Virus record (IMG/VR): IMGVR_UViG_3300036985_002432
Span: 28,213-92,212 of that record
Source of the DNA: a virus
DNA: 64,000 bases
Direction: 5' to 3' (one strand)
The notes below the pieces were generated by a model. The model was not told where the DNA came from. It saw nothing but the letters and a program-made list of their open reading frames with translations, and did not search any database. Position numbers and translations under genes: made by a program. How positions within the stretch are numbered: the stretch's first letter is position 1; each line of letters opens with the position of its first letter. This document shows positions 8,226-58,808 of this stretch, piece after piece.

Positions 8226-8235
8226 AAGTATACTT

Positions 8236-24570: not shown

Positions 24571-27500
24571 ATGATAAATTGTGCTCTTTCCACAGAAACT
24601 GTAGAGAAATTATATAAAAATATTTTTGGCCATATGCAAGATGCTGCATCAAAGGGTAATGCATTTGATGTAAATAAATATATTAAACATATTTTTAATG
24701 GTAAAGCTGATAAGTCTAGACCAGAAATAGCAGCAAAAATTGTTCAGCATATACCAAGAATGGTTATTGATATTACTAATACTGATTTCTTTGAAGTAGA
24801 AGACTTTGTTGACTTAAAAGTATTGCATAAATTAGGACAAGCATTTATGAATCCTAATAAAGGAATACAAAAAATTATATCTGATTATACTCCAACAACT
24901 GATAACAAAATACTTAAAAGTGTAGCTGAAACTAAACTAGAAGAAGCATTTAATATTGAAGAATTTGATGCTGAAGAAGGTGAGTTTAGTGAAAGATTTA
25001 AACCATATAGTTCTCTTACTAGTACATTTCAAGAATTTTTAGCAGTTGATCCTACTTCAAAAAATATTACAGATGTTGAGCAAATTGATGAATCTAAAAA
25101 AATAATATACACTACTCTTAGTGCTATTAAAGAAACAATGAATCCACAGCAAACTGTTGCTGATGATTTAATATATGAAGGAGTAAGTATTAAAGTTAAG
25201 GCTATTCCTTTATCTTCTATACCACAAGCAGAACTAGATGACTATACTAGAAATTTAGTTGTAAAATCAAAATCAATAAAAAAACAAGGTACCAATCTTG
25301 AGGGTGTAACTCCAACAGATAACATGGTTGCTTTAGTTATTTCAAATGCAAATGGAGAATCTTTATATTTTGATTCTGAAGGGCACATAAGTTCAAAAGA
25401 AGAAGGTGGAAAACTAGTGTATCAGTTTTTAAGAGATGCTAGAAAAAAAGGAAATGCATATACAGTAACAGATATATATGGTAAAGAAGATCAAATTCTT
25501 GATCCATATGAGATTGCTGTTAATACATATGACAAAGCTATAGATGGTACTTTTACTAACTATTATAACTCAATAAAAGTATCACAACAAGAAGACTTTA
25601 AAAAAATATATGAATTTAAAGAGTCTGTATTAAAAGATAAGAAAGGTGTACTAATACCACTTTTAGGAATCAGTGATGGTTTACCTGAATCAATAACTGG
25701 TAGTAAGTTGATGTTAAATAAAATTACTTCACTATCCGGAGTTAACCGTAGTACATTTAAATCTATAAAAACTATTCAACAGAGTAGAGGTATTTTTAAG
25801 AAAGGTTATGCAAGCATAATATTAAATGGTAATGAATTTATTGTTGATAGAGCTGATGTACCTAGTGAAATTGCATTACAAGTATCACAAGTATTGACTA
25901 GTAAAGATTTTACTTTCTCAGAAAGAATGGATTTTTACAAACAATTTTTTAGCAATGACTTACAGGCAACTACAAGAAGACATGAGACTGCAGGTAAAAT
26001 AGAGAATAAAGAATTTTGGTTTAACTATTCTGATGAAACATCACAAGAACAAAAGCAAAGAAACTTTCTTGAAAACTCAATTAACTTATCACAAGAATCT
26101 GTAAACAATAAAACTGTAGATGAGTTAGCAGCAGATGCCGCAGCAATCTATGATGTATTAATGTCAGGTAAAGGTGCTAAAAAAAGATACCCGGCTAAGA
26201 TGAATTTTAATTCAGACTTACTTAAGGATGAGCGTTATATGACATATAATGTTGATACTAATAGTATTGAGTTTAAAGATTACATTGATTTTATTAAAGA
26301 TTTAAAAACAGAAATAAGTATTAATAGTGGAGATCCTGGTGTATTTAATACATATATGGAGTTTGCTTTACCTTCTAAATTTCTTAGTACAGTTGATAAA
26401 GTTAAAGAAGAATTAAAAGAAGATACAAGTTCTGATACAAAAAAAGTAAAAGATAGTATAGTAGAAGTATTAAAAGAATCTGGAGGAGTAATTGATGCTG
26501 ATGTAGCTTCTGTTAAAAAAGGTTTTTATAAAGTACACTATGCAAACTTTAAAGTTAATGTACCGGGTGTTACTGAAGAAGCTAAAGTTTATTTTCATAA
26601 TAAAACTGCATTGATTTCAGTTGGTGGTAAAACTTATCAAGATCCTACATGGCCAAAAGAAGGTAACTTAGTAAGATTAGTATTAAAGCCAGAGTTAACT
26701 ATACCGTCCGGAGAAATAATTACAAATGTAATTGAAGTATTTGCAGTTAATGAAGACGGGACACAAGGAGCTTATCTTGGTTCTGTTGCAGAAACTGAAT
26801 ACAATACAAAGAATGAAACTCCAAAGTTAGAAGATGAAGTTGAAGAACAAGAAGTTATTGCATCAGAGGAAAAAGAAACAATACCTGAACTTGAAGATGC
26901 AGTTATCTTAACTAGTCCAATTAAACCTACTAGTAAAACATCAAGAGCTGCTTCATTACTTAATCAAAATATTGCTGGATTAGATAGATCAACAAAATTA
27001 AGTGGAGATGTAACTGTTGAAGATGTAGAAAACGCTAATAACTGGTGGAATAGTTCACCTTTAAATAAATATATTACACTTGATCATGCAGCTAATTTAG
27101 TTAACTCAGATGCATTTGCAAGATTTACAGTAGCTGGAGCAACTCTAATAGATTCAAATATACTAGGTAATATATCTATTTATCAAAAAGGTAGTATGGT
27201 TGATGTATACCATGAGGCATGGCATGGATTTTCTCAATTATATCTTACTCAAAAAGAAAAGCTTAAATTATATAATGATATAAGAGAATATAAAGATAAG
27301 TCAGGTAATACACCTTATGCAAATAAATCATTCTTTGAAGTTGAAGAAATGATTGCTGAAGACTTTAGAACTTATGCAAAAGATCCAAAAACATTTAAAG
27401 CAAAAGTACCTGTTCAAAAAACTATATTTCAAAAGATACTAGATTTTTTATATAAACTATTTGGAGGTAAGATTAATACAAAAGATGTTGTAGTAGGTAA

Positions 27501-30500
27501 TTACCCAGTATCAGTAACTGAAATGTTTGATGCATTATATCTTGCAAGTAAAGACCCAAGTCTATTAAATAAGTATAGTCCTTCTATAGACAATGTAATG
27601 TGGGATTTACTTAATAGAGGTGTAGAAAAAGTAAATGATAGAGATATAGATGTATTAACTAAACAAGAAGCCAACCTTATATCTAATAGTATTGATTCTA
27701 TTCTATCTGATTATGTAGATGCAAATCATGATGCTAGAGTTAGTAATGGTAAAGAAGTTACTAAGTCAGGTACATTAGTTTTATTATCAGAAGAAAAAGA
27801 TGCGGATGGTATTACTAATAGAAGCAAAGCCTATGGTTATGTTAAAGCTGTATTAGAAGATAAATTAGATGAGCTTAATGATGAGTTAGGTACAATAACA
27901 GATAAATCATTTAGTGAAATTAAAACTATAGAAGATCTAGAAGGTGAATCTATTGCTGTTATCCGTAGTAAATCAGGAGAAGATAAATATATATTCTTAA
28001 ATAGTCAAGTTGAAAACTTTAACAATTTAACTCCAGATATAAAACAAGGAGAAAGAGTTAAAGGAGAAAAGTATAAAGGATCAATTGAAATTATATCAGA
28101 TTTTTATAAGCATAATAATATCATAATAAATGATAAAAATGTAAGTATAATAGTTGTTAATGATGTTAGAGATGCTAAAGCTCAATTTGATAACTATGTA
28201 AAAGGTGGAGCTAAAGATTTTGTATCAATTGAAATAAAAGAAGATGGTCCTGTATATACAGACTTAACTTCTGACCAAGAAGATTTACTTGACAACATTA
28301 GAATCTTACAAAATACAATTAATAACTGGGGAGATGAGAAATCCGGAGTTATGAAATACCATGCTGATAATAGTAGATTTGACTTAATCCGTGAAAAGTA
28401 TATTGATGTAAACTATGGTGATGAAGAGTTAGATGAAGATGGTAATATTATAGATGAGACAGATGTTACAGATGGTAAAGATAGTGCTGGTATAGTTGAT
28501 AAAGCTGTAGGTAAAAAATCTGCTGAACAGTTTGCAGGTAAAGAAACATTATATATTGTTAAGAGTTTATTTAAAATTACAAATGGTAAAACAGTAGATA
28601 ATAAATTAGGCTTTAAAGAACTTGTAGATTTTAATAAAATTTGGGGAATACTATTAAGAGAAGTTGGTGGTGTTAAAAATAGAGAAGTTGCCTTTAATAA
28701 ATTAAAAGAAGCTTCAGTAACATATGCACCAGAATTAAAACAATTAGTAGAAAAGAAATTACCGGATCCAACTAAAATTAAACATACATCAGAATTTAAT
28801 GTAAGTGCTGCTTTCTGGCAAGATTTAAGTTTATCAGATATACCTTATACTCAATTAACTGCATTCCCTGTAAAAGAAATGCTTATAAATGAAGATACAG
28901 GATATCCAGAATCTACAATAACTGGGTTTACTATGGAAGTAACAGATGCTTCTATTGAACCAAGTAATGTTATAAGGGGTTTTCAAGCTACATTTAAAAC
29001 TATACAACCTGAAGATAATCCATACATCACTAAAGTAGATAACATAACTATGTTAACTAAACTAAATGCTTTAGTAAAAAACTATGAAGACAAACACAAT
29101 CCAGGTTCATTAAATATTAAAGGTTCTCTTGGATTTGCAAGATCAATTGGTGTATATTTAGATAACTTAGATGAAATAAAAAATGAATTAGAAACTAATT
29201 CTGAGTATTATGGTCTTCAATATATCTATCAAATTGTTAAAGATTTAGCTGATATACAAGCAAAACCATTTGGTGCTAGTGCAGATGCACAAAAAGTATT
29301 AAGAGACTTTGTAATTGATCCACTTGCTGTACTTAAAAGTAAAATACCAAAAGGTGTTATTAAAAGTCTAAAAGGTGTTGAAGTATATCAAAAAAATATA
29401 CTTGACAGACTAGCTGGATTACAAGCACAATTTGGATTAGAAACTAAAGGTAAAGGAGTATTTAATGCTGCTGGAGATATGGTCTTTCCTTTTGTACAAG
29501 ACTTTTCAGTATCAAGAAAAATTGATGCTTTAAACAGTGTTGAAAATCTTACTGATTGTTGGATTAAAGATGAGTTTAAATATATGAGATATTTAAATCC
29601 AACAATATCTAGCTTTACTAACTATTCTCAAATATTAAAAAGTGTATTTAACTATGAGACTGGTAAGATAGATGAAGGCCAAAAAGATAGAAGAAATGAA
29701 AGGTCATTAGATTTAAGCATGGTGTCAGGAACACAGGTTGCTGAATTTAATGAAGGTACAAATACATCTGACTTAGATAAATCAAGTAAGTTTTTACAAG
29801 AAATGCACACTATGTTAAAGGGTGGACTTCAAGAATTTATTAGAGCTGCAGGTAAGAAGACATCTATTGGTGTAAGAGTAAAAGGTGGTCTTATTAAAGA
29901 TAAAGGAAAAGACAGTAACTTGTATGTTGATGTTGACATGTTTGACAGTGAACAAACTGGAGACATCTATGCTGCAAATAAAATCCTTATGCCTTATATT
30001 GCTTCTGAGTTTGAAAGAATTCAAAAGTTTAAAAACAATAGAGAAGAATTTAAAAAGTATACAGGATACAATAGAAAAGTTGGAGGAACAAAAGAAAATC
30101 CTATATATGCAGGAGAAGTATTTACAGCATTTGATAAAGTATTAAAAGAAAAAACTAAAGAATTATTACTTAGTGAAGCTACTGTAAAAGGAGTAAATGA
30201 AACTCCAGGAGGATTAACAATTTATTTAAGAAAAAATACTGAACTAAGACAAAAAATTGAGAGTGATATCTTAGAATACTTTAATGAGCAAACATCAAGT
30301 AACTTAACTAATTTAGTAAACAATAAATACATTGATAAATCTTTAATTGAAAAAACTAATTCTCCAAATTTAACAGAACAAGAACAAGAGTACATGTTAG
30401 TTAAAGCATTTACTTATAATTCTTGGATACATAACTTTGAAACTGTAAATCTATTTATAGGTGAGATGTCACAGTTTAATCATGATAAAGAAAATCTACA

Positions 30501-33500
30501 CAAAAGAAATACTGGAGCACAATCTGGTGGTAGAAAAATCTTAACTGATGAATGGGCTCAAAATTTTGTTAATGATGTTTTAAATAAAAAAAGTTATGGT
30601 GTAAAATTAGCTAAAACTCTTGGAGAAGATTATAATCAATTCTTTTATGATGGTACATTTAATACAGCTATACTTAAGGATGTAGAGAGACCTTCTATTT
30701 ATTTAGATGATATAGAAGCTGGATTAAGAAAAGACTATGCATTAAGTTTAAAGGGTTCAGGTAAATCTAAAGAAGAGATACAAGAAATTATAGATAACAA
30801 TATTAAAAAAGACCGTAAAGCTTATGAAGAAATGAATGAGGCTGACGGTGCAGGATATATTACTATTGATGCTTATAGAACTCTTAAAACATTAGAAAAT
30901 AATTGGTCTCATAAACAAGAAGCTTTATATCAAGATGAAATAAATGGAAGAGAGATAACTTCATCACAAATAGAAGAATTTTTCCCGGTGTATAAACTAC
31001 AGAATTATGGAGAATTAGCAAATAAAACACTTGCTCCTGTAACAGCAATGCATAAATTTGCACTTTCACCACTTATCCCATCTGAAGTTAAAGGTTCTGA
31101 ATTAGAACATTTGCATAAAGAGATGATGAGAAACAATATTCAGTATGCAACATTTGAATCTGGATCTAAAGTAGGAAATATTACATCTAATGGTGAACCT
31201 GATCAAATATTTACTGATGATACTCAAACTAAACTAAAAGATAAATTAACTCTTACAAAGAATACTATATATTTAGAATATCTTAAAAATGTTACAGAAG
31301 TAAATAATAAATTTAAAGGTAAAATTACTTTCCCAACTCAATTAAGAGGTTTAATACTTGATGGTTTATATGAACAAGGAGCACTTGCTTATGATAAACA
31401 TGCTGCATTAGCTAAAACATATCATGATGACGTTGCTAATTACACTGAATTATTAAAGATTGAATTACTTGATGAGATTCAATGGGAAGAAAAGAATGGA
31501 AAATATACAGGAGAATTTACTAAGTTATTATCTCTAGTACAAAAAGAATTATCAAAAAGAGATATGCCAGAACATCTAGTTAAGATGATTGGTGTTAATG
31601 ATGATGGTAGTCTTAAAACAGATTTATCTTTACATCTTGAAGCTGATACAATTGAAAAAATATTATTATCAGTAATTAATAAAAGATTAATTAAACAAAA
31701 AGTTAAAGGTGAAGCTTTTGTACAAGTTCCATCAAGTATGTATAATGGCTTATGGGATACTAAAGCAAATCTTAAAACTGCTACAGAAGCAGAAAAAAAG
31801 AAATATTTAGGTTCAAACAACTTACCATTTTATAGACCCGGAGAAAATGGAAATACAGATGCAATGAAAATTGCTATTGCTTTCCAAGGAGACTTCATTA
31901 ATTTATTAAATGTTAAATTTAATGAAGAACAAATTGGTACTCTAGAAAGATTAAATGAAGCTATTAAAGATGATAACTGGTTAAACACTGGAGACAATAG
32001 AAAATTAATTACATTATCAGGAGCACGTATTCCAATTCAAAACTTAAACTCATTAGAATTTGCTGAGGTATATCATTTCATGAATCCTTCAGCAGGTAAT
32101 AAGATTGTTGTACCATCAGAAATTGTTGCTAAATCAGGATCTGACTTTGACGTTGATAAGCTTTATTTCATGATGCCGCACATTGATGGTAGAGGAAATT
32201 ATGTTAAATCAAGTAAGACTAATACAGAATTATCAAAGGAACTTGCTTCTTTAAAAGGGAAACTGGTTACTGATAAGACTGCGCCAAATGCAAAGGGACT
32301 TATAGGTAAGCAAAAAGCTGCATTAGAAAACAAAATTATTGAGACAACTGCAGAGTTACTTGCAATACCAGAAAACTATGCATCATTAGTAAGACCAAAT
32401 GATACATATTTATTAAAACTTATTGCTGATGACATTCAAAAATATGTTACAGAATATAATAGATACAATGTAGCACATGGTGAAACAGAAAGAGTTAATG
32501 CAAAAGATGATACTAAAAGAGCAATATCTCCTAGTACAACATTAGAGATTGGATATAATCTTGATAAGCATGATAAAAATATGACAGCAAAAGCTGCATT
32601 AGGTATTGATGCTCAGGATAATAAACAACACCCAATATGGAACTCTGTTGGTGCTAAAATGCCAGCTACATATAAAGAATCAGACTTTGATGATGTAACT
32701 AATACAGCAGTAGAAGGTGAAGATGATTATGATGTACGTTTACTTGTAAGACATAACACATTGATAAACAAGAAAGGCCAAAAGGTTATTTCTTTATCAC
32801 ATAGATATGACCAGGATAATGTACGTATTGCTGATACAAGATCACATAAAATGAATGGTCAACTTGATGCTGAGGCAGACCCATGGGTAGCTGATGTTCA
32901 AGCAGATCTTGAGACTACACCTGTATTAAATTATTTAATGAACGCAGGAGTACCATCAAAAGATGCTATATATTTTGTTGCTAATCCACTAGTAAGAGAG
33001 TATGGCCTTCAACAAAAATTATTAAAAAGTACATTCTCTACTATTATTAATAAAGCAGTTACAGAAGAAAATTTTGTTCAGTATAAAGCTGCAGATGCAG
33101 TAGTTACTAAGTTTATACCTTTTGGGATACAAGCACAAATACTTTCACAAATAGCAAATATTAAAATTGATAAGTTTTTAAATAAACTTAAAAACAATGA
33201 TACAGTATATGTAAATACAAGTTTTAAACAACCAAATTGGAAAGAAATAAGTGTTAAAGAATTAAAAGCATTACTTAATACAGATAGTAAACTATATGAT
33301 AAAATTGCTGGATTAATTAACAAGTCAACTCATTCAGTTTATAAAGCTTCAAGATCATTAATAACTAATGGTAACTACTATTATGCAGCTAAAATTGCAT
33401 CTGAAATGGCTGGTATTAAACCAGGTCAATCATTTAGTACAGAAGACATGATATCTATTGTTGAGAAAGGTGCTATTAAAGAAAATCAAATGAAATCAAT

Positions 33501-36500
33501 TGCAATGTTCTTGCATTTTATTGAGATTCAAAAATACATTAAAGGTATTGGTGCAGTTATGCGTCAAGCAAATCCGGATACTAAAATATCTAAGACTGTA
33601 CAACAAATAAAAAAGAGAGATGCAAACTATGAGATTGCATTAGCATCATCAAAGTCTGATGAAGATCTATTAAAAGATTTAAAAGAAAAATCTATCTTAA
33701 GTTCATTCTATCTTAATGATTTATCAATTGATATTATTGAACCATTATTTCCATTAAGATTAAATAAAGATATCTCACAATACATTAGTGATAGATTAAC
33801 TTTAAGCAAATCTACAATAGCAAAGAAATTTGGTAAAGGTGCAGATGGACAAGAAAAGTTTAGTAGTCAGTTTAATAATGGAGTTATACAGTATATTTTT
33901 CAAAATTACATGTCAAACTTTATTAATGCTAATGGAGATGTAGTTACTATACCTGATACCTACAGAAGTATGAAAGTTGTTAAAAGTAAAAATTTAACAA
34001 GAGGTATTGAAATAGTTAATGGTCAGATACTTATAGATGAAAAAACATTAGAAAAAGACTTTAAAGATAAACTATATATAAAAGAAGTAGAGGATACAAA
34101 TAATTATGCAGCAAGAGGTTTACAACCTTTTACAATAGCAGATGATCCATTTCCATCACAGTCTTCTTATAATAGATATGTATTTGAAAGAGAGTTTTTA
34201 AGAACTAAATATCCAGAAGTAACAGAATTTTACTTAAATCAAAGAGCATTAACAAATGTATTTAATGCTAAAGCAATTATGGGTACAAATGAGTACTCAT
34301 ATACTGATCAAGTAATGAGTATTATTAATTCATTTCCTAAATTAAAAGATAAATTTCCTGTGCTAGCTCAAATAGCACCTGCACCATATAAAAATAAAGT
34401 TGGAGAAAATATTAAAGTACTTCAACTTAATGATAAGAAGATGGCAGTTGGTGAATTGGCAGAAATATATAATCAAAATCTTAAACAACTTGCTGATGTA
34501 AATATTAGAAAAGTAAAAGATATAGTTGAGAATCAAAAAATTAGTGATGTATTTAAAGTATTCTCATTAATGATGATACATCAACATGGTGTTGGATTTA
34601 GTAAGTATGGTTTCCCTAAAATATTAGATGAAGCTATATATGTAGATGTAATGAGAAATGCTTCAACTAATTTTATGGCAAATCACATTAATGCACCTAC
34701 TCTAAATACTATATTTAATAAAGTTGTTAGTACTGATCAATTTCAAAACTATGTTGCTGCTCCTGCAGATTATAATAATCCAACAGCCGGAGTATATAGT
34801 AATGACATTACTACAGAAGTAAGAAATGAATTAAATAAATATAAAGATAATAATGAAGTTGGAAAAGTAACTGAATTATTTGCATCATTAGAAGATATAC
34901 ATATATTACGTATACCAAAAGATGCAACTAATGGGTTGTATTTAGACAATGCTTATAATGTATATGCACCATTGAGTCCAGGTAACTTTAAAGAAGCAAT
35001 TACTATGCTTGAAAGTATGGGAACTGATATAGATGCAATGCCAGATCTATTCTATGATTTTGCAAATGATATAGAAGTTAGTATATCTGATTTTTATGAT
35101 ATGATTAAACCTCAATTAGAAGGTGATCCTATTATTGAAGAAGTAGAAATAGGTATGACTACTGGTGTACCATTAGGTCTTAAACTTTCAATAGATAAGA
35201 AAGGTAAAGATCAAGGTAAAGCTGATTTAGTTAATGCTGTAATTTCATATCCAAATCCAAACACATCTAGTTATCAATATCTAGTAGATGCTATGAACCA
35301 AAAAGTTCCGGTAAATGAACAAATTGTAAATGGTCCAGATGTAATAGCTATGGTATCTGTAAATGGTAATGGTAAAGCAACAGAAGATCAAATTGAATAT
35401 ACTATATCACATGCACAAGAAATCTTGGATGCAGGTGGTACTATTATAATGGATTCAACTTTTGATGCTACTAGACCATGGAATAAAACAGGTGAAGCAT
35501 TAGTACAAGAAGGTATTGGAAACCCAACAGGTCAAACATCTTTAGGATATAACTATTGGGGACCTAATCCAGAACCTACTACTCAACCATCTGCTAGTGT
35601 TAAACCTACTGTTAAGGATCTTTCCAGATGGGCTGATATAAAAGATGCTACAACACCTTATACAGATAAAGGTATTGTTGTAACAAGAGTCGGTACTACA
35701 GATAACCAATTTGGAAATCCTTTTATAGGTTCAAAACGTAGAGATAAGCAAGGTAATCTTGTAGAGTCTAAAGTAGATAACATTACTGTATTTAATACTA
35801 TTGATGAAGCTGACCAAGCATATAGAGATTGGTTAGAAGGTACTAAGCATCAGAATATTGAGCCATTAAGAAGAAAATGGATATTAAAACAAATTGCTGA
35901 TGGTAAGCTTGATGGTAAAACATTATTGTACTATAAACCTATGGAGGTTACAAACAATGATGGAACTATTGTAAAAGGTGGTTATCACTCTCATGCTGAT
36001 ACACTTGCTGAAATAGTAGAGGAATTAAGATCTACTCAATCATCTACTAGTGTTAAAGAAGGAGTATCAGAACTATTTGAATCTACTCCTGAATTAGCTA
36101 ATGCTGTATATGAAGCTTTAGGTATATATAATGTATGGCACGCATCTGATAAAAAAATAGATAAATTTATTTCTGAAAATGTAGAAGGCTATTTTGCTAA
36201 TGTCAAAAAAGGATCTCCAAAAGCTGTATTCTTTACAGCTGATAAGGCTCCTCAAGAATCCTTTTTATCTAAAAGAGAATATCAAGAACAATTTGCAGTT
36301 AAAATGGATAACCCTTTAGTTGTTGATACTAAAACTGGTTATTCTAGAGATACTGAAAGTTTTAAAGAATTAGTAGATAGAGCTTTATTAAATAATTATG
36401 ATGGTGTAATTGTTAAAAATGTTGATGATAATGGATTTGTTGGAGATGTTTATATTTCTCTTAACGCAGAGAAAATTAGTAAAATAACCCCACAACAAAA

Positions 36501-36771
36501 ACAACAAGCTCAACAACAATATTCAAATTATCTTGAACAAAACCCCAATGGTAATATAGAAGGATTTAAAAAATTTGTTACTCAATCATCTACTAGTGTT
36601 GAAATAGAACCTACACAAACTGTTATATCTAATTTTTATTCTAACTTAACAGAAAAAGAAAAAGAAAAATTAGGTAACTTAGATGAATTAATTGATGATT
36701 ATGTACAAATGTATGAAGGTACTATGTCTGAAGAACAATATATTGAAAACGTATTAAAATGTAATTTATAA
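24571..36771 (+). CDS. Virion-packaged DNA-dependent RNA polymerase (crAss-like, double-psi beta-barrel) fused to zincin and C-terminal accessory domains
   Basis: 4066 aa; GSDFDVDKL catalytic DxDxD at 32143-32157 preceded by RIPIQ, plus DGAGYIT and FESGSKVG motifs, as in the phi14:2 gp66 type (DFDID); HEAWH zincin at 27211-27225. Confidence 0.9.
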   Translation: MINCALSTETVEKLYKNIFGHMQDAASKGNAFDVNKYIKHIFNGKADKSRPEIAAKIVQHIPRMVIDITNTDFFEVEDFVDLKVLHKLGQAFMNPNKGIQKIISDYTPTTDNKILKSVAETKLEEAFNIEEFDAEEGEFSERFKPYSSLTSTFQEFLAVDPTSKNITDVEQIDESKKIIYTTLSAIKETMNPQQTVADDLIYEGVSIKVKAIPLSSIPQAELDDYTRNLVVKSKSIKKQGTNLEGVTPTDNMVALVISNANGESLYFDSEGHISSKEEGGKLVYQFLRDARKKGNAYTVTDIYGKEDQILDPYEIAVNTYDKAIDGTFTNYYNSIKVSQQEDFKKIYEFKESVLKDKKGVLIPLLGISDGLPESITGSKLMLNKITSLSGVNRSTFKSIKTIQQSRGIFKKGYASIILNGNEFIVDRADVPSEIALQVSQVLTSKDFTFSERMDFYKQFFSNDLQATTRRHETAGKIENKEFWFNYSDETSQEQKQRNFLENSINLSQESVNNKTVDELAADAAAIYDVLMSGKGAKKRYPAKMNFNSDLLKDERYMTYNVDTNSIEFKDYIDFIKDLKTEISINSGDPGVFNTYMEFALPSKFLSTVDKVKEELKEDTSSDTKKVKDSIVEVLKESGGVIDADVASVKKGFYKVHYANFKVNVPGVTEEAKVYFHNKTALISVGGKTYQDPTWPKEGNLVRLVLKPELTIPSGEIITNVIEVFAVNEDGTQGAYLGSVAETEYNTKNETPKLEDEVEEQEVIASEEKETIPELEDAVILTSPIKPTSKTSRAASLLNQNIAGLDRSTKLSGDVTVEDVENANNWWNSSPLNKYITLDHAANLVNSDAFARFTVAGATLIDSNILGNISIYQKGSMVDVYHEAWHGFSQLYLTQKEKLKLYNDIREYKDKSGNTPYANKSFFEVEEMIAEDFRTYAKDPKTFKAKVPVQKTIFQKILDFLYKLFGGKINTKDVVVGNYPVSVTEMFDALYLASKDPSLLNKYSPSIDNVMWDLLNRGVEKVNDRDIDVLTKQEANLISNSIDSILSDYVDANHDARVSNGKEVTKSGTLVLLSEEKDADGITNRSKAYGYVKAVLEDKLDELNDELGTITDKSFSEIKTIEDLEGESIAVIRSKSGEDKYIFLNSQVENFNNLTPDIKQGERVKGEKYKGSIEIISDFYKHNNIIINDKNVSIIVVNDVRDAKAQFDNYVKGGAKDFVSIEIKEDGPVYTDLTSDQEDLLDNIRILQNTINNWGDEKSGVMKYHADNSRFDLIREKYIDVNYGDEELDEDGNIIDETDVTDGKDSAGIVDKAVGKKSAEQFAGKETLYIVKSLFKITNGKTVDNKLGFKELVDFNKIWGILLREVGGVKNREVAFNKLKEASVTYAPELKQLVEKKLPDPTKIKHTSEFNVSAAFWQDLSLSDIPYTQLTAFPVKEMLINEDTGYPESTITGFTMEVTDASIEPSNVIRGFQATFKTIQPEDNPYITKVDNITMLTKLNALVKNYEDKHNPGSLNIKGSLGFARSIGVYLDNLDEIKNELETNSEYYGLQYIYQIVKDLADIQAKPFGASADAQKVLRDFVIDPLAVLKSKIPKGVIKSLKGVEVYQKNILDRLAGLQAQFGLETKGKGVFNAAGDMVFPFVQDFSVSRKIDALNSVENLTDCWIKDEFKYMRYLNPTISSFTNYSQILKSVFNYETGKIDEGQKDRRNERSLDLSMVSGTQVAEFNEGTNTSDLDKSSKFLQEMHTMLKGGLQEFIRAAGKKTSIGVRVKGGLIKDKGKDSNLYVDVDMFDSEQTGDIYAANKILMPYIASEFERIQKFKNNREEFKKYTGYNRKVGGTKENPIYAGEVFTAFDKVLKEKTKELLLSEATVKGVNETPGGLTIYLRKNTELRQKIESDILEYFNEQTSSNLTNLVNNKYIDKSLIEKTNSPNLTEQEQEYMLVKAFTYNSWIHNFETVNLFIGEMSQFNHDKENLHKRNTGAQSGGRKILTDEWAQNFVNDVLNKKSYGVKLAKTLGEDYNQFFYDGTFNTAILKDVERPSIYLDDIEAGLRKDYALSLKGSGKSKEEIQEIIDNNIKKDRKAYEEMNEADGAGYITIDAYRTLKTLENNWSHKQEALYQDEINGREITSSQIEEFFPVYKLQNYGELANKTLAPVTAMHKFALSPLIPSEVKGSELEHLHKEMMRNNIQYATFESGSKVGNITSNGEPDQIFTDDTQTKLKDKLTLTKNTIYLEYLKNVTEVNNKFKGKITFPTQLRGLILDGLYEQGALAYDKHAALAKTYHDDVANYTELLKIELLDEIQWEEKNGKYTGEFTKLLSLVQKELSKRDMPEHLVKMIGVNDDGSLKTDLSLHLEADTIEKILLSVINKRLIKQKVKGEAFVQVPSSMYNGLWDTKANLKTATEAEKKKYLGSNNLPFYRPGENGNTDAMKIAIAFQGDFINLLNVKFNEEQIGTLERLNEAIKDDNWLNTGDNRKLITLSGARIPIQNLNSLEFAEVYHFMNPSAGNKIVVPSEIVAKSGSDFDVDKLYFMMPHIDGRGNYVKSSKTNTELSKELASLKGKLVTDKTAPNAKGLIGKQKAALENKIIETTAELLAIPENYASLVRPNDTYLLKLIADDIQKYVTEYNRYNVAHGETERVNAKDDTKRAISPSTTLEIGYNLDKHDKNMTAKAALGIDAQDNKQHPIWNSVGAKMPATYKESDFDDVTNTAVEGEDDYDVRLLVRHNTLINKKGQKVISLSHRYDQDNVRIADTRSHKMNGQLDAEADPWVADVQADLETTPVLNYLMNAGVPSKDAIYFVANPLVREYGLQQKLLKSTFSTIINKAVTEENFVQYKAADAVVTKFIPFGIQAQILSQIANIKIDKFLNKLKNNDTVYVNTSFKQPNWKEISVKELKALLNTDSKLYDKIAGLINKSTHSVYKASRSLITNGNYYYAAKIASEMAGIKPGQSFSTEDMISIVEKGAIKENQMKSIAMFLHFIEIQKYIKGIGAVMRQANPDTKISKTVQQIKKRDANYEIALASSKSDEDLLKDLKEKSILSSFYLNDLSIDIIEPLFPLRLNKDISQYISDRLTLSKSTIAKKFGKGADGQEKFSSQFNNGVIQYIFQNYMSNFINANGDVVTIPDTYRSMKVVKSKNLTRGIEIVNGQILIDEKTLEKDFKDKLYIKEVEDTNNYAARGLQPFTIADDPFPSQSSYNRYVFEREFLRTKYPEVTEFYLNQRALTNVFNAKAIMGTNEYSYTDQVMSIINSFPKLKDKFPVLAQIAPAPYKNKVGENIKVLQLNDKKMAVGELAEIYNQNLKQLADVNIRKVKDIVENQKISDVFKVFSLMMIHQHGVGFSKYGFPKILDEAIYVDVMRNASTNFMANHINAPTLNTIFNKVVSTDQFQNYVAAPADYNNPTAGVYSNDITTEVRNELNKYKDNNEVGKVTELFASLEDIHILRIPKDATNGLYLDNAYNVYAPLSPGNFKEAITMLESMGTDIDAMPDLFYDFANDIEVSISDFYDMIKPQLEGDPIIEEVEIGMTTGVPLGLKLSIDKKGKDQGKADLVNAVISYPNPNTSSYQYLVDAMNQKVPVNEQIVNGPDVIAMVSVNGNGKATEDQIEYTISHAQEILDAGGTIIMDSTFDATRPWNKTGEALVQEGIGNPTGQTSLGYNYWGPNPEPTTQPSASVKPTVKDLSRWADIKDATTPYTDKGIVVTRVGTTDNQFGNPFIGSKRRDKQGNLVESKVDNITVFNTIDEADQAYRDWLEGTKHQNIEPLRRKWILKQIADGKLDGKTLLYYKPMEVTNNDGTIVKGGYHSHADTLAEIVEELRSTQSSTSVKEGVSELFESTPELANAVYEALGIYNVWHASDKKIDKFISENVEGYFANVKKGSPKAVFFTADKAPQESFLSKREYQEQFAVKMDNPLVVDTKTGYSRDTESFKELVDRALLNNYDGVIVKNVDDNGFVGDVYISLNAEKISKITPQQKQQAQQQYSNYLEQNPNGNIEGFKKFVTQSSTSVEIEPTQTVISNFYSNLTEKEKEKLGNLDELIDDYVQMYEGTMSEEQYIENVLKCNL
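35580..36600 (+). repeat. Three dispersed copies of a 22-25 bp repeat encoding TQ(P/S)S(A/T)SV linkers
   Basis: TACTCAACCATCTGCTAGTGTTAAA at 35580-35604; TACTCAATCATCTACTAGTGTT identical at 36033-36054 and 36579-36600. Confidence 0.9.
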
Positions 36772-39700
36772 TGGCACGTTGTATAATAACTAGCTCACCA
36801 CAATTTAAATCACTTGAAAAAGTGTATGGAACTAAACTTGCTCAAAGTTTCATTATCAATTACTCAATTGATGTAATGAAAGTAGCAGCAGATGAAGACT
36901 ATTATTATCCTTCTAAAATAGAAATAAGAGATTGGTTGACTGCTACAAGAAGTAAAATTATTAATAATGTTACAACAGCTTTAAGAGTAAATCCATATTT
37001 AAATGAGCATGCTATTAAGTCTTTATTAAAAGGTGTTATACATCAACTTGACGGTAAACAATATATAACAAGAGGTACTTCTAACTATGGTTCTACAGTT
37101 GAAACTGCAGCAGCATACAACTTAATATTTAAACCTAATTTAGATTTACTTACAGGGTTAGCAAAAAGATTTCCAAATATTTTTGAGATCACAGATAGAA
37201 CAGATAACTTATATACTAAAGAAGTTATAATTAATCCTATTAATGATAGAGATGAAGCATATGCAGTAGAAGATAGAGCATCAACTATTGAAAGTTTTAT
37301 GAATTCATATCCTGAAGCTAGAAAAACATTAGAGAATGAAAGAATACTTGAGGTTGCAGATAAGTTAGCTCAAAAATTACAACAAGCAACTGGTGTACCA
37401 TATGAATTTATTAAACCAGAAGATGCATATGAAATTTTATTAGATACTAAAACACCATATGATAGTCAAGCTGCATTTTATTTTAATAATAAAATATATT
37501 TTGTTGGAGATTATTTAACTCCGGATAGTGTACTACATGAATATGGACATCCATTAATAAAAACATTATCTATATCTAATAGACCTTTATTTGATAATTT
37601 ATACAGACAATTAGAAGCAGATACAACTGGAGCAGCTATTATTGCTGAAGTAAAAGCAAAGTACCCTGAACTATTTAATGCAGAGAATGATTCAGAAAAT
37701 GATAGATTTAAAGAAGAATGTTTAGTAACTGCACTTGCAAGAGATGCAGAATCTAAAGTTGATAAATTGATTGAAACTGAATCAGGTTTTAGAAAGTTTA
37801 TGACAAATCTTATATATGCTATTAAACAAGTTTTAAAATCTATTGTAAAAAAAGTTAACTTAAAAACTTTATCCTCATCAACTACATTAAAACAACTATC
37901 TGATATGATAGTAAGTGAAGACTTTGTTGTAGATAAAATTGTATTTGATGAATCTGATTTTGCTGAATTTAAAAAAGAAATAGATACTATAAATCAACAG
38001 TTTAGTAAAGTTACCCCGGAAACATTAACTAAAACAGTTAATGACTTCTATAATAGAATACTAGTAATAGCTGAAGCTGTAAAAAAATCTCCTAATGTTC
38101 TTAAACAAGAATTAAAAGGTAAAGATGGTACTAAGATATTTAATTATATTAAAGGGTATATGCGCAGAACTGGTGCAGTTACAGCTAATATAAATAATAT
38201 TGAAGTTGAAGATGTAATAAATGCATCAGTAGACATGAACCTTAAATTTAGAAATCAATCACTAGCACTATATAATTCTATAAATGAAATAAATATGTTT
38301 ACAGAAAATGTAGACAATATATTAGACTCATTTAATAATTTAGAAAACTATACAGCAAATGATGTAATACCAAAAATTAATTACTACTCAAATATTTTAT
38401 CTGCTAATAGTGATCTTGTTCAAAGTATAAAGAAAACAATAGGATTAAGTAAAAATAATGAGTTTATTAAAATTTTAAATGGTATCAGCCATACTATAGG
38501 AGAATCACAAGATAAAATTAAAGCTCTTCAAAAAAGATTTATAGTTGAGTTTTATGGTGAAGAAACTGAAGGTATGAATCAAAGTGTAGAAGAAAGATTT
38601 AAAGCTAATGTAACTCAGTTTCTTAAAACAGAACAAATTGATGATGCCACTATTGAAGCATTTATAAATAAAATTATAACTAATCCTGATGGTTTAGTAT
38701 TTTCAATTGAAGAAGTAGGTGTACCTGTATCTAAAGGCGTAGGTAGAGAGATAGTAGACTCAGTAAGAGAATATTATTTAAAAAGATTAGGTGAAAGTAA
38801 TTTAACTTCATACCTATCTGGTGAAAAGAAAGATGTAAATTACTTTGGCTCTATGTTTGCACCATATATGTATATGAATGACCCTATTATTGCAGGTGGA
38901 GCTAGAAGTTTAAACAATGCATTAGCCGGTGTACAAAGAGCTAATCTTAAACAAAAAGATCAAAATGCTAATATATTAGTACCAAAATTAAAAGCAGTTA
39001 ACTATACAGGTAATAATGTATCTGCAGTTGCTAATAAAATATTATTTACAGATAAAATTGGATACAAGAATTCTAAGACTGGTGAGTTTGAAGAAAAAGA
39101 AGTACTTGCATGGCATCAGTTACATAAGAACTATAGATATGATAGAAATAAACTTCAGTTTGAATATGAACAAGCTTTAGAAAAAAATGATCCTATAGCT
39201 ATTAAGGAAGCATTTCAAGCAGCTGAAAAGTTCCAAGAAGATTACATGTATAGAGAATTTAAAAAAGAAGTCTATGATGTAAAAAAAATGTGGACACAGT
39301 CAAATGAAGTAATACATCCTGAAACAAAACAAGCATTTATTGTTGATGCAGAAACTTCTTTTGAAGCACAAAGAGAAATGCAAGCACAAAGAGAAAATCT
39401 TAATGCTTTAAGTGCAAGTGATACAGATGAGTTAGCTGACATGCAAAAAATGACTCAGTATACTATTGCTAACATGGAATATAAAAAATTATATGATGTT
39501 AGAAATCCTGATGGTACATTAAAAACTGGTAAAGAACTTGAAAAAGTATTAGTAAGAAAAAAATATAGAACAGAGTCTGGTAAATTTTATGAGTCATTTG
39601 TTGACCAAGATAGAATACAAAAAGATTTTGATAACTATATATCTAGACTTGCTTCAGTAGGTATTACTTTAGAAGATACACCTGATGAATTTGATGAAGA

Positions 39701-44902: not shown

Positions 44903-46896
44903 TAAAATAATTTTAATTGGTTAATTCTTGGTTGTAGACTATTGATTTCTTTCTCAATCTTCTCTAAATAGTAATCATAATTAATTTCATACTCTGAAAA
45001 TGGTAACTCAACATAATTAATAAATGTATTCTGTAACCACTTGCCTGCTTCTACTTGTATTTCCCGGTTATCTAAAGTGTTCTTTTTAATAATCTTAGAA
45101 CCCTTTTTAGACATATAATATCTTATTGTGTGTTGTAATGGTGTTATAGTATGTACACCATCTGTAATTGTTTCTTCATTGAATCCCCAATCACCTTTAA
45201 TTTTCTTACCACCACAAAAATCAAATATATTAGATTGACTCATAATATATTCTTGTGGGTCTTTATCATGTACAAAATAATTATACACGGCTTTAGGTAC
45301 TACTAAGAAACTTTTGTTTTTATGTAATGCTAGATTATGAAACTCAAATCTACCTTTACACTTTGTTGCACTATATTCATATACATCCGTGGATATTTTT
45401 TTGAATACATAATGCGGATTCTCTGCTTTAATACTTAATACAGTATCATAATTAACTTGCTTTGGTGAACTAACTGCAATATAGTTATTTACATCACCTA
45501 GTATAATCTTACTATAGGCATCATGCTCTAGTTGAAGATTAGTAATCTTTTCCCATTGAGCACATATCTCCATATACTTATCTTGATACTTTCTTGGTAT
45601 AATAGTTTCAAGACCATCAGTATTCTGCATTAATGGTATAGCTTCCGGAATTGCTTCCATAAGCATTTCATATAGCATAGCCAAAGATAACTGACCATTA
45701 ATAGTAATTCTCATAGTAAATTCTGGATCATATAGAAAACAGTTTTTATCATTACTTAATCCATAAGTTGAATTAAGAATAATCTTATATACATAATTTC
45801 TAATATCCTTTTTACTAATCTTTCTTCTTTCATTAAAGAACCATTCATACTGGTCACAGAATTCTTTTTTAGGAAGATGAGCTGGGGCCCATTTATTTCT
45901 AATAGCTAAGTTAGGATAATATGAAACAACATCACTAGACATTATTACCATTTCATCATCTGACTCATATACGCATTTAGTTCTTGCACCATGAATACCG
46001 CCAAGACCAAAATCAGTCTTAACTCCTCTATATTGCACAGAATACTTAAAGGCATTTTTAGTTTCATCCGGATATACAATTGCTTCATTGAATTTCTCTA
46101 ATAGTTTTTGAAATGGTGCAGTAGTAAATGATATATAATCAAGTATAATATCCTTTACTATAATTTGATCTCTAATAGTTCTTAGTTGTCTTAATTCATA
46201 TTTTTTAATACCAGTTTTTTCACTCAAGAAATGCATGAATAATTCTTTAGAAATTCTTGGTTCAGAAGCACTGAATAAGTTAATTCCATACTCATCTGTC
46301 AAAGTCTTTCTTAAAGCTATCTGATCCTTGCTTAACTGCATTATTTTTTTAGTAGAAAGCACATCATTAAGACAATAAGATATAATCTCATCAACTTCTT
46401 CTTGTGTAGTGATTGCTTTACTATGATGAATAGGCATATCTTTGATATTGGCCCAATCCATACTATACTGTATCCACTTTAATGAACTTCTCTTAGCAGG
46501 ATTATCCCAGTGATTTAGTTTAAATACATCTACCTGGCGGATCTGCATTGTTCTATCACTAAATTCTAGAAACTCTCCTGTATTTTGTACTTCAATAATA
46601 TTTTGTGCTTTACCATATATCCATTCTGCAATATCACCTCCAAACATTTCACGGAGTTGATCTGCATTTCTAAGTATATATTCAGTAATTTGACCATCAA
46701 AGCCTAAACCATTAAATGACACATGCCATTCATCTAGTTGTATATTGTGTTCTAAAAAATCTAGAAAGTCTTCTAAATCATTTTGCATAGTTGAGATTAC
46801 AAATACTCTTGTATCATCTGATTTTACATCCTGAAACACGCCTAGGAAACAATTGGATAATGTTTCATAGTCCATGACGTAGTGGGTTCTATTCAT
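44902..46896 (-). CDS. polB: Family B DNA polymerase
   Basis: Exonuclease DYE and FNGLGFD motifs; polymerase motifs SDVVSYYPNL, KIILNSTYG, QNTDG. Confidence 0.93.
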   Translation of the reverse strand: MNRTHYVMDYETLSNCFLGVFQDVKSDDTRVFVISTMQNDLEDFLDFLEHNIQLDEWHVSFNGLGFDGQITEYILRNADQLREMFGGDIAEWIYGKAQNIIEVQNTGEFLEFSDRTMQIRQVDVFKLNHWDNPAKRSSLKWIQYSMDWANIKDMPIHHSKAITTQEEVDEIISYCLNDVLSTKKIMQLSKDQIALRKTLTDEYGINLFSASEPRISKELFMHFLSEKTGIKKYELRQLRTIRDQIIVKDIILDYISFTTAPFQKLLEKFNEAIVYPDETKNAFKYSVQYRGVKTDFGLGGIHGARTKCVYESDDEMVIMSSDVVSYYPNLAIRNKWAPAHLPKKEFCDQYEWFFNERRKISKKDIRNYVYKIILNSTYGLSNDKNCFLYDPEFTMRITINGQLSLAMLYEMLMEAIPEAIPLMQNTDGLETIIPRKYQDKYMEICAQWEKITNLQLEHDAYSKIILGDVNNYIAVSSPKQVNYDTVLSIKAENPHYVFKKISTDVYEYSATKCKGRFEFHNLALHKNKSFLVVPKAVYNYFVHDKDPQEYIMSQSNIFDFCGGKKIKGDWGFNEETITDGVHTITPLQHTIRYYMSKKGSKIIKKNTLDNREIQVEAGKWLQNTFINYVELPFSEYEINYDYYLEKIEKEINSLQPRINQLKLF

Positions 46897-47930: not shown

Positions 47931-48980
47931 TTAAAGTATTACATTACCTTTTGCTAAATCATATGGTAGTGTAAAGTCTTTGTCTGTATAGTGATAATCT
48001 AATACCTCTAACATACTCAAGAAATCTTCTTGCCATATGGATAGTGTTTCTTTTGATACCTGAAATGGATATATCTGATTAAACTTATCTATTACAATAA
48101 ATGTTATCACTATTTGCCATTCAGCAATATCTGGTACTTCCTTTAAATAATTAAACCAAGCTAGTTGTTGATACATGACGGCCTGTATCCAATATTTATA
48201 ATATCCAACTGCATCTGGAAAATCCTGTAAGGCTTTACCCGTTGTTTTTAAGTCATTTATAAATAATATTTTTTGGTCATAGTCAATGACTACATTGTCA
48301 AGTATACCTTTAAATCCAAACTTGTATCTACCTGGTTCAACTTTTAAAGCTACTTCATTTAATATCTTGACATTAGGGTTGTTAACCGTGTCAAGTTGAA
48401 GTAAAGATCTAACTGATTTGTGTTCTCTTAACAATTCTACAGATACTTTACAGCCATCTAAAGTTTGTTGGTCAATCACAGTTTTATCAGCTTTCTTCTT
48501 AAGAAAGTCAAAGTATTCTTTGTTTTGTTCTGTAAGTACTTTTTCAAGTCTTTTTGAGTCTCCAGTTTTAGTTAGATCTTTTTTGTCATCTACTAAGCTT
48601 TGGTGTAAGTTGAGGGATAAGAGTTGTATAAGTATGTCATCTGAGAAGTCCTCCAAAGATAATGAATTATTATTTAATGGCATGTAACATTTATTGAAAA
48701 TATTTGTTACAATTATTAAATTATTATCTGTAGGAACTTTACCTGGCATAACTATGAATTGTTTATCAAAGTTTTCAGGTTCTAATAACAAACAATGTAG
48801 TGCTCTACCTGTTACCAGGTGAGCATCTATACTGTCTTCTTTTTGTTTTAGTATATAATGATCATAAAACATTCTAGGTGAGAACAATAATTTATTTATG
48901 CTGCTGTAGCTAAAATAAAATGTTTCATCATAAAACTTGTTTAATTCTTCATTAAAGGGCAAAATAGTCTGTAGACTCAT
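47931..48980 (-). CDS. PD-(D/E)XK exonuclease (RecE/DUF3799-like)
   Basis: FSYSSIN, GRALHCLLLEP, KGILD..INDLKTT, YWIQAVMY motifs. Confidence 0.85.
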   Translation of the reverse strand: MSLQTILPFNEELNKFYDETFYFSYSSINKLLFSPRMFYDHYILKQKEDSIDAHLVTGRALHCLLLEPENFDKQFIVMPGKVPTDNNLIIVTNIFNKCYMPLNNNSLSLEDFSDDILIQLLSLNLHQSLVDDKKDLTKTGDSKRLEKVLTEQNKEYFDFLKKKADKTVIDQQTLDGCKVSVELLREHKSVRSLLQLDTVNNPNVKILNEVALKVEPGRYKFGFKGILDNVVIDYDQKILFINDLKTTGKALQDFPDAVGYYKYWIQAVMYQQLAWFNYLKEVPDIAEWQIVITFIVIDKFNQIYPFQVSKETLSIWQEDFLSMLEVLDYHYTDKDFTLPYDLAKGNVIL

Positions 48981-58055: not shown

Positions 58056-58808
58056 TTAATCTACAAAAACTTTTTCCCAGTAAGTTTTATACTCACCGTT
58101 TTCATCTATTTCTGCTATTACTATTTCTTCATTTCTAAGATGTTCTGGTCTTGCACCGCAAGAGATATCATCATTAGTCTTAAAGCTTAAGATATTCTTG
58201 TTACCTTTTCTGTACAAGTATCCAATTGCATCTGAGTTAGAAGTAGTAATCCTTTTTAATTTACCCGTTAAGTCTAAGTCCATGGATGTAAATGTTCCAC
58301 CTGCTTTTTCTAACTGAGTATCTTTTACGTGACCAACAAAGATTACATAGGGAGCCCATGTTCTTATATAATCAATCACTTTAGTAAAAGCTTGTCTTGT
58401 CCAATAGTAACCGGCACCTTCAGGCAAACCTAAAATAGTACCATACTTTACTTTACCACCTGTTTCAGGAGTAAACCAGTTTTTACCCATTGGAGATTTA
58501 GAATACATAACTTCTGCATATGGAATAATCATTTCTTCCAATGCTGTTATAGTATCTACAGCTACATATTTGTAAGGATTTCCTGCTTCTTTGATAGCTT
58601 GGCCTATTTCTCTGATTTCCTCAAAGGTTTTAGCTTCTACTTTCATAGCATTTAAATACTTTGAACCTCCTTCTAAATCTAAGATTAAACAATTATCTAG
58701 TGTAGATAATAAACTTGTTTTACCTATTTTAGGTTTAGAAAAGATTATTAAGTTAGTAGGGCTCTTATGACTTGGAGCAACTCTACTTGTTGGTAATACA
58801 ATTCCCAT
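58056..58808 (-). CDS. AAA_24 / Sak4-like ATPase (recombination)
   Basis: SKPKIGKTS Walker A, LDLEGG, VAVDTIT, FVGH, SDAIGYL. Confidence 0.8.
   Translation of the reverse strand: MGIVLPTSRVAPSHKSPTNLIIFSKPKIGKTSLLSTLDNCLILDLEGGSKYLNAMKVEAKTFEEIREIGQAIKEAGNPYKYVAVDTITALEEMIIPYAEVMYSKSPMGKNWFTPETGGKVKYGTILGLPEGAGYYWTRQAFTKVIDYIRTWAPYVIFVGHVKDTQLEKAGGTFTSMDLDLTGKLKRITTSNSDAIGYLYRKGNKNILSFKTNDDISCGARPEHLRNEEIVIAEIDENGEYKTYWEKVFVD

Follow-up and report, generated by a model that had tools for sequence, protein, structure and literature searches.

How might a giant phage protein gain, lose and swap whole domains at one end and still keep its reading frame? The question is raised by a 4066-aa open reading frame (ORF; positions 24571–36771, + strand) in the window, meaning here the whole 64,000-nt stretch that was analysed, which is the final 64 kb of the 92-kb IMG/VR virus record IMGVR_UViG_3300036985_002432. 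The record is ~77% complete, and all sequences are metagenomic. From its sequence, the ORF is reasonably regarded as a homologue of the virion RNA polymerase (RNAP) of crAss-like phages. Three copies of a short in-frame repeat, here called the linker, cut its C-terminus into four parts: a 139-aa pre-domain, module 1, module 2 and a 55-aa tail. Homology breakpoints, combinatorial neighbours and linker-to-linker variants show that the linker marks the places at which domains come, go or are exchanged at the RNAP C-terminus, and the linker itself is conserved as DNA, not as peptide.

A sequence-only reading of this stretch had described a 22–25 bp repeat at three sites, encoding TQxSxSV and conserved at synonymous positions. 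A repeat search of the window recovers it as a single three-copy family of 26 nt, at 35579–35604, 36032–36057 and 36578–36603, with 85–100% identity between copies. These copies of CTACTCAAYCATCTRCTAGTGTTRAA (35579, 36032, 36578), encoding TQxSxSV, are the only ones in the 92-kb record; the 21-nt core ACTCAAYCATCTRCTAGTGTT matches the window only at 35581, 36034 and 36580, where none is expected (100 shuffles), and has no further copy in the whole record. All three lie on the + strand in the frame of the giant ORF. Copy 1 is CTACTCAACCATCTGCTAGTGTTAAA (TTQPSASVK), copy 2 is CTACTCAATCATCTACTAGTGTTAAA (STQSSTSVK) and copy 3 is TTACTCAATCATCTACTAGTGTTGAA (VTQSSTSVE), with the central peptides TQPSASV, TQSSTSV and TQSSTSV, respectively. 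Copies 2 and 3 are identical across 21 nt; copy 1 departs from them at two bases, both at first codon positions and both amino-acid changing, so the synonymous sites of the linker are indeed conserved. Within the element lie a palindrome, ACTAGT, and a direct repeat, CTACT..CTACT.

Just upstream of the pre-domain, at 35158–35172, the sequence ATG ACT ACT GGT GTA CCA (MTTGVP) resembles a linker minus its middle 12 nt (ACT ACT ... AGT GTT), and a related locus, L008, carries an intact linker at the matching position. MTTGVP may be a linker relic, or the likeness may be due to chance.

Breakpoints and neighbours of the linker

DNA alignment of the window with loci L006 and L007 places the edges of homology at the linkers. 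The sequences are unrelated up to the left linker (copy 1), then share ~90% nucleotide identity through module 1, and diverge again after it, at the right linker (copy 2) in L007 and ~20 nt beyond it in L006. Module 1 is 89–90% identical in protein sequence in both loci, between unrelated flanks. The RNAP body of L007 is only 35% identical to that of the window, and in L006 module 1 follows a different giant body, 26% identical to the 1933-aa protein encoded directly before the RNAP homologue in the window. The C-terminus of relatives is not invariant: L007 lacks the pre-domain and carries other modules after module 1, L008 has a linker ahead of the pre-domain and merely a decayed one behind it, and L009 and L010 end shortly after the pre-domain. 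In L107, a module 99% identical to that of L080 is preceded by another left half of the linker, which puts the breakpoint inside the element.

Repeat-to-repeat deletions, which the sequence-only reading had suggested looking for, are present at the contig level. Logan contigs from four runs of four studies were mapped on positions 34300–37300; the runs containing the stretch derive from lake water, freshwater and sediment metagenomes. One contig (X5 record 25, 972 nt) passes from 35249–35587 directly to 36587–37219, with 0 and 2 mismatches in its flanks of 339 and 633 nt. It encodes the pre-domain and the tail, joined by a hybrid linker whose left side derives from copy 1 and whose right side derives from copy 3; both modules are missing, and the gap of 999 nt is in frame. 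A second contig (X3 record 21, 5344 nt) matches 35803–36030 with 26 mismatches in 228 nt, continues with nine other bases, and then matches 36580–37300 with 1 mismatch in 721 nt; it carries a different module 1 allele and lacks module 2. Copy 1 is thus the left side of the first joint, copy 2 the left side of the second, and copy 3 the right side of both. Because the linker versions share exact runs of only 5–8 nt, and the repeat is shorter than the assembler word, these joints are not assembly collapses. In the run that best covers the stretch (X1), contigs break just past each linker, and summed depth starts from ~37, reaches 103 at linker 1 and climbs to 435 over linker 2 and the adjoining helical adaptor of module 2, indicating that many other genomes in the sample share these short stretches. 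Several short joints from 36122 to ~36482, with flanks below 31 nt, were not used as evidence of deletion and serve only to hint at differing cores between conserved ends; a loose end after linker 1 in run X2, which could be linked to no contig of known flanks, was likewise set aside.

The same element recurs in other phages. Scanning IMG/VR with the pattern ACTCAANNATCTNCTAGTGTT returns 87 exact matches in 69 stretches (68 contigs from 62 data sets), at most five on one contig, and all 87 lie in the same frame inside long or giant ORFs. The linker 23-mer is absent from the genomes of 185,579 prokaryote species, which therefore give no clue to a prophage or a host. Linkers can be placed relative to the proteins of the window in 45 of the 69 loci. 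Most fall just past the point, near residue 3400, at which the RNAP body ends, and ahead of the counterpart of the giant gene that follows. A second site separates the N-terminal part of the RNAP from the homologue of the 1933-aa protein encoded before it.

The sequences joined at these sites are highly varied. About 40 module families are connected by the linker (about 39 downstream clusters), and those recognised in relatives include ART-PolyVal, NADAR, 2OG-FeII_Oxy_2 (AlkB-like), cpYpsA/SLOG, an AAA_33 P-loop kinase and DUF7831. Across 91 junctions, 47 upstream and 38 downstream clusters occur in 76 distinct pairs, and the module 1 family alone is found with 8 different upstream and 11 different downstream partners.

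The richest array is seen at 6565–8952 of L056, where five exact and two near-exact linkers in series separate AlkB-like, unknown, NADAR, pre-domain-like and other modules.

Conservation of the linker as DNA

Among 84 distinct TQxSxSV peptides in long ORFs, 81 are encoded by exactly the codons ACT CAA xxA TCT xCT AGT GTT, and the other three are one base off. Background codon use (ACT 0.52, CAA 0.81, TCT 0.39, AGT 0.31, GTT 0.43) predicts this codon choice in ~2%. As the 84 peptides had been found with a DNA pattern, two linker-blind sets were made by searching with module proteins. In the first, comprising 28 loci with DUF7831-related modules (EVIPLNESQR...), the upstream joint is either exact or visibly decayed with residue changes, and the canonical peptide is never written in other codons; the linker is exact even at L096, where the module is just 66% identical in protein sequence. 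In the second, comprising 25 loci with members of the module 1 family, exact linkers stand beside modules of only 26–36% identity (L111, L113, L114, L117, L122 and L127), and the decayed linkers mix synonymous and non-synonymous changes.

Decay of the linker follows the same lines. In 43 non-exact copies, third codon positions show ~3.9 changes per site versus 7–8 at first and second positions, making them the least variable sites of the linker, and most changes alter the residue. This pattern is the reverse of what selection on the peptide would produce. The consensus, CT-ACTCAA-YC-ATCT-ACTAGTGTT-RAA, spans 26 nt and encodes xTQ(P/S)S(T/A)SV(K/E). Its information profile is at background from -3 and beyond +23, which defines the linker as a sharply bounded 26-mer with edges at -2 and +23. 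In the preceding codon, T is the third base in 95% of sites, and the first base is variable.

Slipped or partly duplicated linkers also occur, at 5410–5440 of L007 and in L032, L048 and L120; an example is ACTCAACCATCTACT joined to CAACCTACT, which encodes TQPSTQPTTV. They are consistent with misalignment on the internal CTACT/ACTCAA repeats.

The carrier protein and its modules

The window has a GC content of ~29%, and giant + strand ORFs run across 3–42839, followed by a minus-strand replication block. The 4066-aa ORF lies in this run, between the gene for the 1933-aa protein and that for a 2022-aa giant protein. Its proposed homology to RNA polymerases, made earlier from the letters of the DNA, gains support from a DFDVD motif (DxDxD type, residue 2525; 32143–32157, + strand), found by motif search within the stretch that aligns to the crAss002 and cr85_1 RNAPs, and from tblastn similarity to crAss-like phage RNAP proteins that is weak but consistent (22–25% identity, E 1e-6 to 3e-20). 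The E values are 3e-20 for cr118_1, 4e-12 to 5e-6 for the cr85_1 and crAss002 RNAPs, and 1e-6 for phi14:2 g066 (‘catalytic RNA polymerase subunit’). The DFDxD-type catalytic motif of the phi14:2 gp66-type RNAP is thus represented by DFDVD, in an ORF that sits in a block of giant + strand genes. Searches of PDB chains with phmmer, using the whole ORF and its C-terminus, return nothing significant, so that kinship to the phi14:2 gp66-type RNAP would be distant. A zincin-like HEAWH motif is present at residue 881 by motif search, zincin-like MPTase domains being frequent among polyvalent proteins, and a Pfam profile search detects no peptidase family in the ORF. Pfam and PHROG searches with the whole ORF and with each module likewise give nothing significant except DUF4326 at E 0.025, alongside noise such as PEP_mutase, and megablast of 33000–38000 against GenBank phages finds no match.

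The carrier ends in a cysteine-bearing tail. This 55-aa segment (36604–36768, + strand, from the translation) finishes in ..VLKCNL, with the Cys codon at 36760–36762, and a related tail, ..IKQCNL, is present in L026 and L073. Only three cysteines occur in the entire protein, at residues 4, 1663 and 4064.

Related giant ORFs (L007–L079, up to 4183 aa) nearly all have about one cysteine, within the final 1–6 residues. It is kept though the tail sequences differ (..QCNL, ..NCFK, ..DCQ, ..KLC).

The repeats had been taken to bracket separate modules, and AlphaFold (AF2) models built from alignments of relatives place compact domains between them. Domain borders coincide with the repeats in both the alignments with relatives and the models. 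The pre-domain (35161–35577, + strand) is modelled as a compact alpha/beta domain (pLDDT 91) and is a cassette type in relatives too, with a homologue of 69% identity in L008 that has a linker directly upstream. It had been called an unassigned alpha/beta domain, and so it stays: the fold is Rossmann-like, Foldseek and a wide structure search give generic matches only (best Z 5.6), and the ESM Atlas gives no usable match.

Module 1 (35605–36030, + strand; FGNPF, AYRDWL, GKLDGKTLLYY, SHADTL) had been likened to DUF4326. ESM-Atlas features agree, with DUF4326 clusters in 29 of 30 matches (score 0.93), whereas the Pfam match to DUF4326 (PF14216) scores 15.7 bits against a curated cut-off of 25 (E 0.025). 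Module 1 is therefore described as DUF4326-like rather than as an established member. Its LLYY and SHADTL segments (35890–36000) sit where DUF4326 presumably has its usual cysteines, and their absence would fit the general avoidance of cysteine in these proteins.

Module 2 had been said to resemble the ADP-ribosyltransferases of polyvalent proteins (ART-PolyVal). A direct match to Pfam is lacking at E≤1, yet the resemblance holds at superfamily level, as a predicted ADP-ribosyltransferase fold, through matches of relatives to PF18760, shared ends and the model. The module has three segments, all on the + strand: an N-terminal helical adaptor (EGVSELFESTPELANAVYEALG, 36058–36123; nucleotide identity in relatives, model helices 4–21), a divergent core of predicted ART-PolyVal type (36121–36486; PF18760 in relatives, model fold), and a C-terminal helical end (..NIEGFKKFV, 36487–36577) that alignment shows to be common with ART-PolyVal modules. 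Exhaustive phmmer searching with module 2 collects 247 relatives, and 9 of 29 aligned relatives match PF18760 (best 2.4e-17). Linker-flanked modules of L078 (1e-11) and L060 exceed the PF18760 cut-off, and the matching linker-flanked modules start with a GVSELFES.PELA adaptor and finish with DIEGFKKFV, as module 2 does. The model of 36055–36603 has a pLDDT of 88, with the last residues, which are the linker, below 50 and disordered. All top structural matches of the modelled core (residues 23–144) have the ART fold: MbcT (Z 7.3, rmsd 3.2, 112 aa), tankyrase 2 (7.1), PARP2 (7.0) and ParT (6.4), with PARP1 also within 6–7.3, and the top Foldseek list contains PARP domains and 6kyf (deposited as an anti-CRISPR protein). 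These Z values are middling, so the fold call depends on the consistency of the list and on the sequence link. In the alignment the His of VWHAS is invariant, the Glu-containing AEK aligns with PEQ of relatives, and the motif Tyr (YF[ST]) is replaced by Phe in the window.

The ends of module 2 travel separately from its core. The 69 nt following linker 2 (EGVSELFESTPELANAVYEALG) are 81–94% identical in L058, L029, L074 and L034, which then continue into unrelated cores, and many phmmer relatives match the adaptor only, or the ..IEGFKKFV segment only (query residues 138–180). With such conserved end segments added to the linker, some cassettes have homology arms of ~90–120 nt rather than 26 nt.

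Many phages conserve the nucleotide sequence of both portable ends, the 22-aa helical adaptor and ..NIEGFKKFV, and have unrelated or strongly divergent cores between them. What follows the adaptor in L050 is a P-loop kinase and not an ART.

The only tblastn matches to the C-terminus are stretches similar to module 2, located N-terminally in the last giant gene of two Buchavirus genomes. In L001 (NC_055890.1) the stretch, at 8001–8560, belongs to the gene after the RNAP-like giant and lies at the N-terminus of that gene's product, not at an RNAP C-terminus. The L001 gene is annotated as a single CDS, yet it contains stop codons under table 11, and these may reflect stop-codon reassignment in that phage.

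Proposed cassette exchange, rival explanations and known systems

The favoured reading, to which a probability of roughly 0.72 is given, is that the RNAP C-terminus is a string of cassettes and that the linker is their shared DNA joint for recombination. The breakpoints at linkers and the linker-to-linker variants support recombination cassettes, as had been proposed from the letters alone. Beyond this, we infer the enzymes of exchange, the catalysis predicted for the modules, which would make them the anti-host effectors of the sequence-only reading, and their delivery into the host with the RNAP. The cassettes would fold independently, would be of the polyvalent-protein kind, and would be joined by the 26-nt in-frame linker. 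Recombination between linker copies would delete, insert or replace whole domains, keeping the frame and the Cys-bearing tail. Unequal exchange within one genome would lead to loss or gain, and exchange between co-infecting, often distantly related phages would lead to replacement. With many rounds of exchange, the linker would also stay the same throughout the phage population. The likeliest route would be short-homology recombination by the phage's own candidate enzymes, a Sak4-like single-stranded-DNA-annealing protein (SSAP; 58059–58808, - strand; PHROG 124, E 3e-29) with an exonuclease VIII-like protein (47934–48980, - strand; PHROG 412, E 4e-22) as its possible partner. The outcome would be fast-changing enzymatic domains on a protein that, by homology to phi14:2 gp66, is probably packaged and delivered with the DNA. 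A large HNH endonuclease (52215–53408, - strand) is annotated in the replication block as well, and this block also contains a DNA polymerase (44905–46896), a primase and a DnaB-like helicase.

Several points weigh against this reading. The linker collection was mostly retrieved with the linker pattern itself and is biased accordingly, and the module-based sets are small (28 + 25 loci). The presence/absence variants are contigs of other samples, and thus represent outcomes rather than events or their direction. A length of 26 nt is short for efficient homologous recombination, and a sharply bounded, near-invariant site would suit a sequence-specific enzyme equally; as the record is incomplete, its missing portion could encode a recombinase or nuclease. 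Packaging of the RNAP in the virion and its ejection are argued from weak homology (22–25% identity) to the crAss RNAPs that have been studied. Module 2, with no direct Pfam match and Phe for the motif Tyr, may be inactive.

Other explanations place the role of the linker elsewhere. The 26-nt element could be the recognition site of a dedicated nuclease or recombinase that starts break-induced or att-like exchange, possibly with circular intermediates. A broad environmental crAss-like clade would then capture cassettes, excise them (perhaps as circles) and reinsert them into virion-delivered giant proteins, a ‘domain integron’ whose site is invariant through the requirement for recognition and not through homology alone. 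The sharp borders, the 26 nt that barely vary among phages with RNAP bodies of only 24–50% identity, the palindrome and direct repeat within the site, and the homing-type endonucleases in the genome, the HNH enzyme at 52215–53408 included, all suit this explanation. However, neither tyrosine (PF00589) nor serine (PF00239) recombinases are found in the 92-kb record, in searches whose controls were positive, and no enzyme is linked to the site. Hybrid or half-replaced linkers (X5 record 25, L107) have their crossovers at varying places inside the element, as expected of homology-driven exchange, and the slipped TQPSTQPTTV variant of L007 looks like a slip of replication or recombination. A dedicated enzyme is considered unlikely. 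The linker may instead be mainly a peptide signal, either a site at which the chain is processed or cut (for instance by a host protease, or by the HEAWH zincin-like region of the protein itself) or a flexible spacer that frees the domains or sets them apart after delivery, with its DNA identity a by-product of recent spread; such a role may coexist with recombination. It would agree with a motif that always links folded domains in frame and lacks order in the model, with distant relatives that keep a similar peptide (PTQQTSEVE, PTQQPSEVK) in other DNA, with the HEAWH at residue 881, and with the peptidase domains and autoproteolysis discussed for some polyvalent proteins (PMC5512222). A peptide role nevertheless leaves the codon-level pattern unexplained: variation is lowest at third codon positions, residues change freely in decayed copies, and the canonical peptide is hardly ever written in other codons. 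The ORF also has no detected Pfam peptidase family, and the N4 virion RNAP is packaged unprocessed (PMC5512222). This account appears quite improbable.

Chimeric assemblies at the repeat, or a low-complexity S/T/P/Q linker that arose by chance or vertical inheritance, have also to be weighed; all data are metagenome assemblies, and S/T/P/Q-rich linkers are common between protein domains. Yet the exact shared stretch (21–22 nt) is shorter than the Logan contig word size, and the X5 joint is a hybrid with shared runs of 5–8 nt. The 87 of 87 matches in frame come from 62 independent data sets, shuffles of the window give an expectation of none, and identical DNA adjoins modules of 26–36% protein identity, all of which makes an artefact or trivial origin highly implausible. 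Further candidates were tried and rejected. Programmed -1 frameshifting or termination at the linker would find a TAG in the -1 frame, but a slippery heptamer is absent; no ATG follows the linkers to serve internal translation starts; the splice-junction residues of inteins are missing; an RNA hairpin would have just a 6-nt palindrome; and tandem duplication of one domain is contradicted by modules that are unrelated to one another.

Phage proteins delivered with DNA are the first phage products to reach the host, and it is therefore probably their set of domains that determines which defences a phage can survive. The locus shows a simple physical rule for rebuilding such payloads: because one short in-frame joint is common to about 40 families and to barely alignable phages, whole enzymes could be plugged in or dropped with the carrier unbroken. 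For Crassvirales, few of which are in culture, it offers a model of rapid counter-defence evolution that can be tested directly. The linker also provides a searchable tag with which candidate effector domains can be catalogued, a natural blueprint for attaching domains of choice to a protein that the virion delivers, and a clean example of coding sequence conserved as DNA rather than protein.

Among known systems, the polyvalent proteins of phages and conjugative elements (Iyer, Burroughs, Anand, de Souza and Aravind 2017, PMC5512222) include the N4 virion RNAP; extensive mosaicism was noted in them, and possible recombinational variability was raised. Similar to these, the locus encodes a giant multidomain phage protein, probably delivered with DNA, with a mosaic of ART-PolyVal, NADAR, SLOG, kinase and AlkB-type domains. 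The mark of a polyvalent protein, a single polypeptide with many unrelated domains of effector type, is found here in the pre-domain and the DUF4326-like and ART-like modules after the RNAP body, a position at which relatives carry ART-PolyVal, NADAR, AlkB-like, cpYpsA, AAA_33 and DUF7831 domains. Unlike the proteins of that survey, in which the word ‘linker’ does not occur, the joints here share one 26-nt element conserved at the nucleotide level, and near-identical phages differ by whole cassettes. The carrier is a homologue of the crAss-type two-barrel RNAP, whereas that of the survey is of the N4 type. The closest studied carrier is gp66 of the Cellulophaga phage phi14:2, a virion RNA polymerase (Drobysheva et al., bioRxiv 10.1101/2020.03.07.982082). 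The two share a DFDxD-type motif, a position in a block of giant virion genes and weak sequence similarity, but the window protein, at 4066 aa, has roughly double the length and bears the string of cassettes at its C-terminus. Giant RNAP proteins that evolve fast are described in the crAss genomics paper, with no linker feature.

Integron cassettes and shufflons resemble the locus in having an array of exchangeable units between repeated short sites, with gain or loss of whole units. However, no integrase or Rci-type recombinase is found in the record, the units are domains in one frame and not genes, and the repeats are direct, coding and 26 nt long, unlike integron or shufflon sites. In polymorphic toxins, CdiA-CT regions follow VENN and Rhs toxins follow PxxxxDPxGL, and the conserved coding sequence presumably supplies homology for cassette replacement. 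These systems were reportedly treated by Aoki et al. in 2010 and by Zhang, Iyer and Aravind in 2012. There as here, a short conserved motif stands between a carrier that is constant and enzymatic domains that vary at the C-terminus, the linker preceding 38 downstream module clusters. Polymorphic toxins, in contrast, have one terminal toxin, an adjacent immunity gene and orphan cassettes, whereas the cassettes here are serial and in one frame, on a virion protein of a lytic-type phage. An immunity gene directly downstream of each module is absent; the modules follow one another within a single ORF, after which comes the gene for the 2022-aa giant. Conservation also lies at the DNA level here and not in the peptide.

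Phages are themselves known to exchange modules at boundary sequences, as in Botstein's modular theory and the linkers at lambdoid gene boundaries. Further cases are the His-box and Gly-rich motifs in T-even tail fibre genes and the collagen-like repeats in receptor-binding proteins of streptococcal phages. The locus shares with them short conserved DNA as crossover points that reassort modules, and a domain mosaicism that crosses taxonomic borders. General shuffling of phage protein domains has been described (Smug et al. 2023, PMC10684548), in a paper that makes no mention of a linker or breakpoint. A literature search with the peptide, the 21-mer, and crAss combined with polyvalent proteins or domain shuffling returned no description of one nucleotide-conserved in-frame joint shared by dozens of effector-type domains on a crAss-type virion RNAP. 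Known phage module exchange takes place at gene borders or in host-recognition proteins, whereas the joints described here are internal and in frame, between putative effector domains on a virion RNAP homologue; and, unlike in those systems, a single near-invariant 26-mer is reused for about 40 domain families.

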